A stretch of 64,000 nt of DNA from Microbotryum violaceum (lineage: Eukaryota). The stretch covers positions 1,240,001 to 1,304,000 of the forward strand of contig CDLV01000014.1 in the NCBI GenBank assembly GCA_001244265.2, read 5' to 3'. A program made the translations under genes and the position numbers. A model generated the notes under the pieces. That model searched no databases, was not told the DNA's origin, and worked only from the letters and a program-made list of their open reading frames with translations. Shown piece after piece: positions 40,091 to 43,000 of the stretch (position 1 is the first letter of the stretch; every line of letters starts with the position of its first letter).

Positions 40091-43000
40091 TGTTGTGGGA
40101 AATTAGTGGGGTCTGCGGTCCAGAGGGACTTATGGTCTTAGCAGTGGCGCGGCGCGCGCGGGTGTTGTGCGGGGGACCATCAGAGGCGGCTGGTTGTTTA
40201 CATGAGATTGCGTCTTTTTGGCCTAGCTGTTTTTCTCTCTTCTCCACCACGCACTCGATATCACATCTCGCCTAGTCGCTCTGTTACAGTCGATTGACCT
40301 TTAGCGACCCATTATCTCACAATAGGTTAGTTGAAATACATTACCACGCACTCGATATCACATCTCGCCTAGTCGCTCTGTTACAGTCGATTGACCTTTA
40401 GCGACCCATTATCTCACAATAGGTCATCTATCGGCGTCACGTAACCAGAGACGCTCCTACAATAACAGGTTATGAGTCCATCAGAGACCATTGCTCAGGA
40501 GTCTGGGGAGATCAAGATAGCCAAGCTCGGCAAGGATAATTACAAGCTGTGGTCGATTCGAGTCGAGGCGTACCTCGAGAGCAAGGGCTATGCGAGCGTC
40601 CTCGAGCATGGGCATGTGCGGCCCTCCGACGTCAGCCTGGCTGAGTGGAGGACCATGCACGGTCTGGATGCCTCGGTCACCGACACCCAAGTGGTCGTGA
40701 ACTTGCAGAAGAAGGACAGAAGCGCCCGTGCCCTGATCATTCAATGTATCGACGATGCGAATCTCAAGATGGTCAAGAGCAAGACGCTCTCCGCCAAGGA
40801 TATCTGGGATAAGCTTCGCCAGCATCATGAAGGGAATGCCAAGCCTTTCAAGATTCGAACGTTGTTGATGGAACTCTCGAATGCGAAGTACGACGAAGAC
40901 GAGAATATGGGCGAGTTCTTGAAGAGCATGATCGACAAGGCGGATCAACTCGACGATCTCGGTCAGAAGTTTGGGGACGAGGCGATGATCGCGTACATCC
41001 TCCAAGCATTACCCCCGTCGTACGAGATGCTGAAGCAAGCAATTCGCCTCGGTCGACCATGTCATCAATCGCCTTACAGACGAGTACACGGAACGGAAGT
41101 TGTCGGGCAAGTTCGACAAACTCTTGAAGAACGCGGGAGCATTAGCCGTTCAAAGCACGCAAGCAAGTCGTGACCCGAACTGTGTCTGTAGGGGATGCAA
41201 GGGGAAGGGTCATTTCGCGATGGACCCTGAATGTCCCAAGTACGACGCCAAGAAGAACCACGGTCGTGCGCGCAACCGCAACAAAAAAAAGAAGCAGGAC
41301 TCGAAGGAATCTGCGGATTCAAACGAGTTGGCTAAATTTGCGTTGACGGTCAAGTCTCTCGATGAGAGCCATTCGCTTCAAGACAATGTCGCGAATAGGG
41401 TGTCGCAGCTTAACCAGGGTGAGATCTGGATACTGGACACAGGTGCTAGCCAGCACTATGTTGGAGACGCCAGTTTGCTCTCCAATCGTCAAAGTGGAAA
41501 CCTGAAGGTTCAGACAGCGAGCGGACAGGTAGTACACTGCGATACGTATGGGATGGTACGTTTCAAGTTGAAGAGTGGGGCATCGCTCTCACTTGCGAAC
41601 GTGTATCATCTCCCGGGTGCGCCCGTGAACCTCATCTCGACTAGAGCTCTATTCAAATCGGGAGCCAAGTGCGGATGGGAAGATGGCAAGGATGTCATGA
41701 CGATCACCTATCAAGGAGTCATCTTGGCGAAGACGCTCAGTGGTACCGGTTATGCGCTCGACTTTACGCGCATTGTCGAGGATCAAGCTCATGTCGCAAC
41801 CCGTGCGACAGTGGGAGCGCCTTTGATGGAGTGGCATCGTCGCTACGGGCATGTGCCCGTGAGCTCAATCATGGAGCTCGTCAAGTCAGGCGCTGTCAAG
41901 GGATTAGTTCTCACCGATGAGAAGGTCCACGACTGCGAGCCCTGCATCAGTTCCAAGTCTCGCGCATCGAAGTTCTCAGAGTTGGCTACTCAGGTCAGCG
42001 ACGTTCTTCAACGCGTATTCATGGACATCGGATTCGTCGCAGAAGATCAAGTTGATTTCCAAGGTCGAAAGGCATATCTGGCTATTGTAGACCAGTACTC
42101 GACTGCGAAGTGGACGTTCCCGTTGAAGACGAAGTCGGCTGAAGAAGTCACTCGAGTATGGATCGCATTTCGACAAGGAGTTGAAAAAATGACTGGTCGG
42201 AAAATCAAGCGCGTGCGTACGGACAATGGTACCGAATTCACAAACAAGCTCATTGGCGCGGATTTCCAAAGTCAAGGTATCCTTCATGAGACCTCTGCAC
42301 CATACACCCCGCAACAGAATGGAACAGTAGAACGCTTCAATGGCTCGTTGATGGCGATTGTTCGTGCGGTCCTTGCAGCCTCCAAGCTGTCATGGAAGTA
42401 TTGGTCGTATGCGTTGGCGTACGCCACATTTGTTGCCAACCGAATTCTACACGCCAAGTTGGAGGGTAAAACCGCCTATGAAGTATTCTATGGCAAGAAA
42501 CCCAAGGTCTCGCACTTTCGTCCATTTGGATCAACCGTGTATGCGCAAGTTCCGAAGTCAAAGCGATCCAAACTTGAATCGACTTCGGTTAAGGGGATAT
42601 TCATCGGATACGATAGTGAGTATAACTATCGTGTGCTCGTTGATCCCAACTCGGACCACAAAGTCATTGTGACGCGCGACATTTCGGTCTTGGAACACAA
42701 ATCAGAGCAGGTTGGTGTACCGGAGGTCACAACTCTGCCTGTGGGGCCAGATGAAGAGAAGGGTCCTGTCGATAACGACGAGATAGTCGTTGACGAACTT
42801 CAGGATCAGGTAGACGGTGAGCAGATGCCACCTGCCCGTCAGAACCGTCCTCGATGGGAGTATGGAGATCCCGCTGTTAAGGGAAGGAACCCTGGAAGAT
42901 ATGAGGAGATCGACGCTAACAACAAGATTCCACACCGTACTCGTAGTCAACGTCGGGACGCGGAGCAACAAGTCATGTATGGCTCTGCGATGTCGGTCTC

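Follow-up and report, generated by a model that had tools for sequence, protein, structure and literature searches.

The unequal long terminal repeats of Copia G, a retroelement of Microbotryum violaceum, differ by one period of an intron-like two-unit module

Introduction

Copia G is a single copia-type element located at 40091-44843 of the window analyzed here, a 64-kb stretch (64,000 nt) of Microbotryum violaceum DNA from contig CDLV01000014.1 (positions 1,240,001 to 1,304,000), and its two long terminal repeats (LTRs) are of unequal length. A preliminary description of this DNA reported that the LTRs are asymmetric by an intron-like block of 97 nt, which raises the question of how two LTRs of one element came to differ by such a block and whether the block behaves as an intron or as a repeat of variable number. 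Both ends of the element are flanked by the same 5-bp target-site duplication (GCGAC) and the LTRs have TGTTG...AACA termini, thus both LTRs stem from one insertion and Copia G is not a recombinant of two elements. The interpretation preferred here, to which we give about an even chance, is that of a standing two-unit leader module from which one period was lost in the 3′ LTR through repeat misalignment. The features on which the argument depends are as follows, in window coordinates.

40086-40090, forward strand: target-site duplication GCGAC, left copy (direct reading)
40091-40467, forward strand: 5′ LTR of Copia G, 377 nt, TGTTG...AACA, two-unit form (alignment, self-BLAST)
40230-40245, forward strand: C/T-rich tract adjoining unit 1 upstream, presumed promoter-proximal (reading of the sequence)
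40246-40325, forward strand: unit 1, 80 nt, ACCACGC...CACAATAG, presumed first exon or start of the repeated (R) region (Tandem Repeats Finder, alignment)
40326-40342, forward strand: spacer GTTAGTTGAAATACATT, 17 nt, donor-like (direct reading)
40343-40422, forward strand: unit 2, exactly the same as unit 1, with TTGAC at 40391 (its A 28 nt from the end) and a terminal TAG before G (Tandem Repeats Finder)
40423-40467, forward strand: final 45 nt of the LTR, from the end of unit 2 up to the primer binding site (reading, alignment)
40468-40479, forward strand: presumed primer binding site, GGTTATGAGTCC (position adjoining the 5′ LTR)
44565-44843, forward strand: 3′ LTR of Copia G, 279 nt, one-unit form, with the unit at 44719-44798 and TTG at 44728-44730 (alignment, self-BLAST)
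44844-44848, forward strand: target-site duplication GCGAC, right copy (direct reading)

The LTRs Differ by One Period of 97 nt

Pairwise alignment and self-BLAST give the 3′ LTR as the 5′ LTR minus exactly one 97-nt period, made up of the 80-nt unit and the 17-nt spacer, and Tandem Repeats Finder returns the same period over 40246-40424 (1.8 copies, 100% matches). The three methods thus bear out the asymmetry as first described, including its perfect 80-bp duplicate. When the GT that follows is counted with each unit, the tandem repeat is identical at 82 of 82 positions and its copies are 15 nt apart; a perfect 82-nt tandem repeat is not a product of chance. Alignment of the LTRs also agrees with the initial account that their remaining differences are one substitution and one indel. 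The substitution is a TCG>TTG change, with TCG present in both units of the 5′ LTR (C at 40256 and 40353) and TTG in the single unit of the 3′ LTR (T at 44729), and the 1-nt indel lies near 40153 in a GC run.

Contig mapping reveals that 82 letters fit either side of the 97-nt skip, and there are consequently 83 equivalent cut registers that lead to the same product. The coordinates originally assigned to the block (40326-40422) hold as the only register of the 83 that reads GT...AG, but as a location of the missing segment they are one register among 83 equivalents. In that register, the block reads tag/GTTAGT...TTGAC...CAATAG/g over 97 nt (slashes mark the presumed boundaries), with the A of TTGAC 28 nt from the end, so that the set of intron signals attributed to it (AG/GTTAGT, TTGAC, and TAG/G) is complete. 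A donor with G at +5 and a YAG acceptor are those of spliceosomal introns, judged by a consensus from Fusarium and not from this fungus; that consensus, in the part of the source at hand, is AAG/GTAAGT for the donor, CTRAY or the minor variant TTRAY for the branch site, and YAG/R for the acceptor (PMC5677156). TTGAC at 40391 falls within the 10-50 nt before the acceptor in which a branch site is sought, and is of the TTRAY type that is minor in Fusarium.

These signals have to be set against the k-mer frequencies of the window. A YTRAY motif occurs somewhere in 83 positions by chance with P ~0.39, which makes the branch match weak, while the 83 registers of a random 97-nt duplication would include AGGT with P ~0.30 and AGGTNNGY with P ~0.05. 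Given these chances and the 83 registers, the intron-likeness of the Copia G block taken alone is at most suggestive. Its joined, or spliced, form would be identical to the one-unit LTR that exists as DNA. The spacer GTTAGTTGAAATACATT has no second copy in the window within 3 mismatches, and it is not a copy of the flank either, being alike by eye to the bases after unit 2 at four of 17 positions.

The Two-Unit Module in Other Copia Families

The two-unit module is a standing feature of copia elements in the window and not an accident of this G copy. The pattern ATAGGTWWGYTGMAAT occurs at four sites of the window (23456, 40322, 54820, and 51126 on the minus strand), all of which are junctions of an LTR unit with a spacer, and in 0 of 100 shuffles, a test that is post hoc in that the pattern was derived from these same four sites. 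The modules outside Copia G at which these junctions lie are the following.

23413-23525, forward strand: family A2 module, a 47-nt unit, spacer GTTAGTTGCAATCCCATCC, and a 47-nt unit, the units 88% alike
51055-51126, reverse strand: family C spacer and unit attached to another, short LTR, where what precedes the donor does not repeat the unit
54769-54892, forward strand: family C module, a 55-nt unit, spacer GTATGCTGAAATAG (54824-54837), and a 55-nt unit with 1 mismatch

The primer binding site of family C opens with the acceptor G. In family H, GTGTGTAAC connects units of 63 nt, and one diverged 68-nt block starting GTGAGC is present as well. The spacer start ATAG/GTWWGYTGMAAT is shared by G, C, and A2, while family H uses another GT-spacer. 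When the last four unit bases are taken together with the spacer, these sequences align among G, C, and A2 with z of 3.7 to 8.7; the earlier suggestion of a motif common to the three families and extending beyond the 6-nt donor is upheld by this alignment and by the four ATAGGTWWGYTGMAAT junctions. The units of G, C, A2, and H, in contrast, do not align between families (z -0.8 to 1.6). Since the units are alike within an LTR and unrelated between families, yet lie beside a conserved spacer, a fresh accidental duplication in Copia G is hard to square with the data. Either the module is old and has been homogenized, or a common mechanism rebuilds it.

Other properties of the modules are shared as well. 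A C/T-rich tract precedes unit 1 in all four families, and the first bases of the unit are ACCAC or ACCGC for G, C, and A2; C/T-rich tracts have a role in fungal promoters. All six blocks examined, from four families, start with GTNNGY after AG and end in AG, where AGGTNNGY has a frequency of 0.0006 per position in the window. In no case is the last unit followed by a donor-like sequence (GTCATC, GTTATT, TTCATC or ATTGTT, and GCGTGA). The G+C content of the blocks is 0.42-0.48 against 0.51-0.61 for the window, and the spacers are A/T-rich. As for a hairpin within the unit, no fold better than those of shuffled sequences stands out in any of the four families (z -0.17 for G, -1.55 for C, -0.58 for A2, and -0.78 for H).

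One-unit forms exist alongside the two-unit forms. C-type LTRs with one unit are found at 37759-38028, where a primer binding site follows in the layout of a working 5′ LTR, and at 38286-38604, and the A-type LTRs comprise one with two units and three with one. The segment missing from the 3′ LTR of Copia G is bounded by direct repeats, and other copy-number states occur in G, C, A, and H, as is characteristic of a copy-number variant.

Further arrangements were observed among these families. The LTRs of family H (48242-48538, minus strand; 45832-46234, plus strand; 49219-49726, minus strand; 59203-59710, plus strand; and 62390-62895, minus strand) differ in their number of consecutive GT...AG blocks (0, 2, or 3, each 68 or 72 nt long). 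Every block ends in ...CTTGAGCAG, the same letters that precede its GT, and the short form equals the long form minus all blocks. A tandem array at 51055-51735 on the minus strand (period 230, 1.8 copies by Tandem Repeats Finder; three LTR copies by eye) contains a short LTR of ~95 nt, the primer binding site GGTTATGAGCCC, ~130 nt of further sequence, and a G run. Its last short LTR is followed by ATA and then by the family C spacer and unit, which abut the middle of a reverse-transcriptase coding sequence. The C-type LTR at 54510-54893 is common to two tandem elements (53840-54930), with the order RNase H end, 17-G run, LTR, primer binding site, and next gag.

A Putative Leader Intron

The block of Copia G would be one period of a two-unit leader module placed between the C/T-rich tract and the primer binding site. 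The unit would extend from the presumed transcription start (ACCAC) to the conserved donor-type site, which would account for both of its boundaries, and its second copy would end in the branch-like motif and the acceptor. This arrangement points to a short leader intron whose tail repeats exon 1, and, as judged from the sequence, such an intron is most likely what the module represents, with the one-unit LTRs as putative products of its loss. In DNA, the donor and the acceptor both lie within one LTR.

A more tentative extension, on balance somewhat doubtful, is that the module is a self-renewing leader intron common to several copia families of Microbotryum violaceum. Exon 1, from the start site to the donor, would be repeated as the tail of the intron. 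With spliced RNA as its template, strong-stop minus-strand DNA terminates in the complement of exon 1, which would allow it to land on the tail of the intron in the RNA's 3′ copy and to rebuild the order of unit, spacer, and unit, with unit 2 overwritten by unit 1. Landing on unit 1 instead would give one-unit LTRs, and an unequal pair such as that of Copia G would be a half-failure in a later DNA-templated pass. Self-renewal would explain why the units are identical within an LTR, why they have drifted beyond alignment between families, and why only the donor spacer is conserved.

Retroelements copy from RNA, so spliced introns should be lost from their progeny. If the intron is self-renewing, the element keeps it through a replication cycle that should erase it, and modules that are spliced and rebuilt would constitute a natural way to carry an intron through reverse transcription. 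The significance of this would be greatest for fungi in which gene expression may depend on introns, an idea that comes from work on Cryptococcus.

Origin of the Asymmetry

In the accessible part of a review on reverse transcription, the plus strand primed at the purine tract copies the finished 3′ LTR of the minus strand, and the 5′ LTR is made from that copy (PMC3187697). Since both LTRs derive from one minus-strand LTR, equal LTRs result whether an intron is removed from the RNA or the first-strand transfer is misplaced. Splicing is therefore unneeded for the asymmetry and cannot produce it directly, and the connection between the two that the preliminary description had implied does not hold under standard reverse transcription, in which a spliced RNA yields two LTRs of the same form. 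Inequality needs a later DNA-templated error, an intermolecular second transfer, or a change after integration.

Direct repeats in the LTR are well placed to undergo such changes. The same portion of the review states that LTR direct repeats of 50-75 bp vary in copy number, that a 110-bp repeat was deleted in 41% of single cycles of a retroviral vector, and that rates of repeat deletion are similar for RNA- and DNA-templated synthesis (PMC3187697). At these rates, a perfect 82-nt repeat with copies 15 nt apart would be unstable in reverse transcription and likewise in host replication and repair. Copia G would thus have entered the genome once, as its intact 5-bp target duplication suggests, and misalignment of the two perfect 82-nt repeats would have removed one period from the 3′ LTR. 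The loss may have taken place in a DNA-templated pass of reverse transcription over the LTR, followed by mismatch resolution, or through replication slippage or repair in the host after integration. Loss after integration is at least as likely, given that an error in the last plus-strand pass needs heteroduplex resolution. We infer both the direction of the change, loss and not gain, and the stage at which it occurred.

Several points weigh against this account. Transcription of the module, its start site, a poly(A) site, and splicing are all hypothetical. The direction of the asymmetry, with two units in the 5′ LTR and one in the 3′ LTR, needs heteroduplex resolution if it arose in reverse transcription and is less direct than the mirror case would be. 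The same outcome would follow from a gain in the 5′ LTR, such as conversion from a sister copy with two units. The unit numbers depend on the assembly of each LTR, which may be incorrect, and family G, whose norm may be either state, is represented by one LTR pair. Finally, the donor-like start of the spacer resembles the start of the primer site (GGTTA/GGTAT compared with GGTTAT), and part of the donor signal could derive from a duplicated junction of the LTR end with the primer site and not from selection for splicing.

State and Age of the Copia G Copy

Contigs of four public runs (X1, X15, X17, and X19) were compared with the window over 39500-44500. The LTR repeats exceed the word size in these contigs, thus the block cannot be assigned to one LTR. 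The contigs also overlap and accumulate at LTR ends, so that depths are not usable as copy numbers, and parts of the LTR have no cover in X17 and X19. One X15 contig displays the one-unit form of G: it extends from the end of pol across the entire LTR, with 155 and 126 nt beside the skip; because it reaches the last LTR base, it is read as derived from DNA copies, although the kind of run that X15 represents is a guess. As a separate observation, the X19 contig skips 130 nt with GT..AG ends in the pol frame of G (42816-42945), a weak case in which the shorter side has 29 letters.

The contigs also indicate what the window copy has lost. Fourteen letters behind 41048 are absent from the window copy and present in contigs of all four runs, and this deletion, which lies between 5-nt direct repeats, is of the slippage type. 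Two letters behind 43915 are absent from the window copy and present in contigs of three of the four runs. The two losses put gag, pol, and RNase H in three frames (40472, 41034, and 43822), so the window copy is defective; by coordinate arithmetic, restoring the 14 and 2 letters joins the three frames into one.

Point differences add to this load. Among the differences listed between X1 and the window (n=33, with 105 further places), 25 have T/A in the window against C/G in X1, and 13 of these 25 are in TCG/CGA context, with six more in another CpG context. TpCpG is the target of the process in Microbotryum that resembles repeat-induced point mutation, according to the portion of the source available (PMC5381629). 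The mutated shares of TCG/CGA sites are similar in the LTRs (1 of 22) and in the body of the element (at least 13 of 238), which is compatible with much of the load having been acquired after insertion. Four LTR letters (40179, 40180, 40409, and 40434) differ from the X1 contigs and are the same in both LTRs, and thus predate the insertion, and each LTR also has one private change. There has been time enough for at least two private LTR changes and possibly for two deletions. The argument that near-identical LTRs leave little time for a later loss consequently fails in view of the two frameshifting deletions, the TCG-type load, and the high rate of repeat loss.

Alternative Explanations

The module may be a variable tandem repeat of the R and unique 5′ (U5) regions and not an intron, with first-strand transfer in any register of a repeat that both RNA ends contain expanding, contracting, or homogenizing it and with the spacer carrying some other signal, such as one for 3′-end formation; the asymmetry of Copia G would again be one repeat lost. 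Copy number does vary in every family seen: LTRs of G, C, and A have one or two units, and those of H have 0, 2, or 3 blocks. Retroviral LTR repeats of 50-75 bp are stated to vary likewise in the consulted part of the review (PMC3187697), and the spacers are A/T-rich in a G+C-rich window. In addition, the H spacer GTGTGTAAC resembles by eye the first 10 nt after the last unit, GCGTGACAAC, a likeness that is expected if the period consists of the unit and a few downstream bases. We nevertheless consider this explanation rather unlikely. It does not account for the AG/GTNNGY boundary in 6 of 6 blocks from the four families, given that no donor-like sequence comes after the last unit, nor for a G spacer that matches the bases after unit 2 at only 4 of 17 positions, and the unit of G folds no better than shuffled sequences (z -0.17). 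If the module is only a variable repeat, the asymmetry is an instance of ordinary LTR repeat instability, and a caution against dating or interpreting LTR pairs by point differences alone.

It is less probable by far that the asymmetry is a direct trace of splicing, in which a one-unit complementary DNA (cDNA) recombined into the 3′ part of the element or joined a two-unit partner by intermolecular plus-strand transfer within a single particle. cDNA of copia/Ty1-type elements enters by recombination with resident copies in yeast, a GT...AG reading fits the missing 97 nt exactly, the target duplication has been preserved, as it would be by conversion, and one-unit G LTRs exist as DNA in another run (the X15 contig). 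However, any of the 83 registers gives the same product without splicing, and the variant mosaic of a conversion tract is missing, as the 3′ LTR has all four of the lineage-specific letters of the 5′ LTR. Such a history also calls for two rare events where one common event suffices. More doubtful still is a late gain, whereby both LTRs had one unit at insertion and the 5′ LTR afterward underwent a tandem duplication that included filler of 15-17 nt. Break repair ordinarily yields filler-bearing duplications, and the 100% identity of units 1 and 2 is what a very recent duplication would exhibit. Against this, the filler matches the A2 spacer at 11 of its first 12 positions and the C spacer at 9 of 12 even though the units are unrelated, and it starts exactly at AG/GT, unlike random filler. 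The ends of contigs from X1 (at 40274) and X17 (starting at 40395) fall at points where an assembly graph containing a spacer path would branch and hint at the spacer in other copies as well, though X1 may be the source of the window. An assembly artifact, with the 3′ LTR collapsed or the 5′ LTR expanded, is just as improbable as the late gain. Repeats of a multi-copy family are hard to assemble, and the 1-nt indel near 40153, where the X1 and X15 contigs are without the extra base, is typical of long-read consensus error. Yet nested repeats with clean target duplications in 64 kb argue for a long-read assembly, in which collapse of 97 nt would be unlikely, and each form has independent examples, one-unit in the X15 contig and two-unit among the modules of other families.

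Organization of the Element and Its Surroundings

The internal part of Copia G contains the following features in addition to those of the LTRs.

40472-41173, forward strand: gag open reading frame (Retrotran_gag_2; Pfam)
41034-44042, forward strand: pol frame with the protease region, integrase, and RVT_2, out of frame with gag (Pfam, frames of the open reading frames)
43822-44580, forward strand: last pol frame, the RNase H region by likeness to other copia copies, with the frame shifted again (comparison within the window)
44557-44564, forward strand: purine-rich run AGTGGGAG before the 3′ LTR, presumed polypurine tract from its reading, with its role likewise presumed

Pfam matches comprise Retrotran_gag_2 (1.3e-24; 40472-41173) followed by gag_pre-integrs, rve, and RVT_2 (1.1e-59; 41100-44042). 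The last frame (43822-44580) has no Pfam match and resembles the RNase H ends of other copia copies in the window. The domains thus follow the order of copia elements, that is, gag, protease, and integrase before reverse transcriptase and RNase H, and the TG...CA ends and 5-bp target duplication are those of Ty1/copia LTRs. The primer binding site is one that we take to pair with the internal part of the initiator tRNA, as in Drosophila copia, and the 64-kb window contains no tRNA gene with which to compare it. The gag ATG (40472) lies inside the primer binding site GGTTATGAG, leaving no leader between the LTR and gag.

The host of the Copia G insertion is the integrase region of a copia element that is older and diverged (39290-40093 and 44873-45166); this older element is ~76% alike to another copy at 55926-56856. 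Elsewhere in the window, the LTR pair 2863-3050 / 7648-7818 (90% alike) has a 17-nt indel beside an imperfect 8-nt repeat, a slippage-type difference.

Comparison With Known Systems

The asymmetry itself is an ordinary kind of event, and it is the underlying module that is unusual. The copy described here is a clean pair of states in one integrated element and a good reference locus. A comparable module is not described in the titles and abstracts of the papers listed on Microbotryum or on fungal LTR leader introns, in a search that covered journals outside subscription. Metagenome scans returned 0 exact matches to a 36-nt pattern from the unit and, for pol, one weak relative, 29% over ~100 residues on a 1.2-kb contig.

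The closest precedent for the asymmetry is template switching between LTR repeats, as presented in part of the review cited above (PMC3187697). As in those cases, Copia G has a perfect direct repeat in the LTR, a sister LTR without one copy and the intervening bases, a repeat (82 nt) within the unstable size range, and several copy-number states per family. The repeats in the review passages are enhancer repeats of the unique 3′ (U3) region or engineered markers (PMC3187697). In Copia G, by contrast, the repeat lies between the presumed start site and the primer binding site, its donor-type boundary is conserved in four families, and the two LTRs that differ belong to one integrated copy.

Intron birth by tandem duplication of an AGGT-bearing segment is the model reportedly put forward by Rogers. 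Head-to-tail duplication without intervening sequence is not what is found in Copia G, where the copies are separated by a spacer of 15-17 nt that is partly common to other families. In the available portion of the study of intron birth by AGGT duplication, the GT of the first copy and the AG of the second bound the segment, and excision restores the unduplicated sequence (Hellsten et al., 2011; PMC3265369). Copia G agrees with this in that AATAGGT ends both copies. It differs in that AG/GT is at the very end of the unit and a conserved, non-duplicated spacer completes the donor, as well as in concerning an LTR leader, whose splicing is putative, and not a coding exon.

Split-intron retroviral vectors (Ismail et al., 2000, as relayed in the accessible part of PMC3182074) resemble the module proposed here in that reverse transcription assembles an intron by copying parts of the LTR. 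In those engineered vectors, the 3′ LTR carries the donor and the region downstream of the packaging signal carries the acceptor (PMC3182074). In Copia G, both sites lie in one LTR, rebuilding would proceed via the copy of exon 1 at the tail of the intron, and the arrangement is a natural one.

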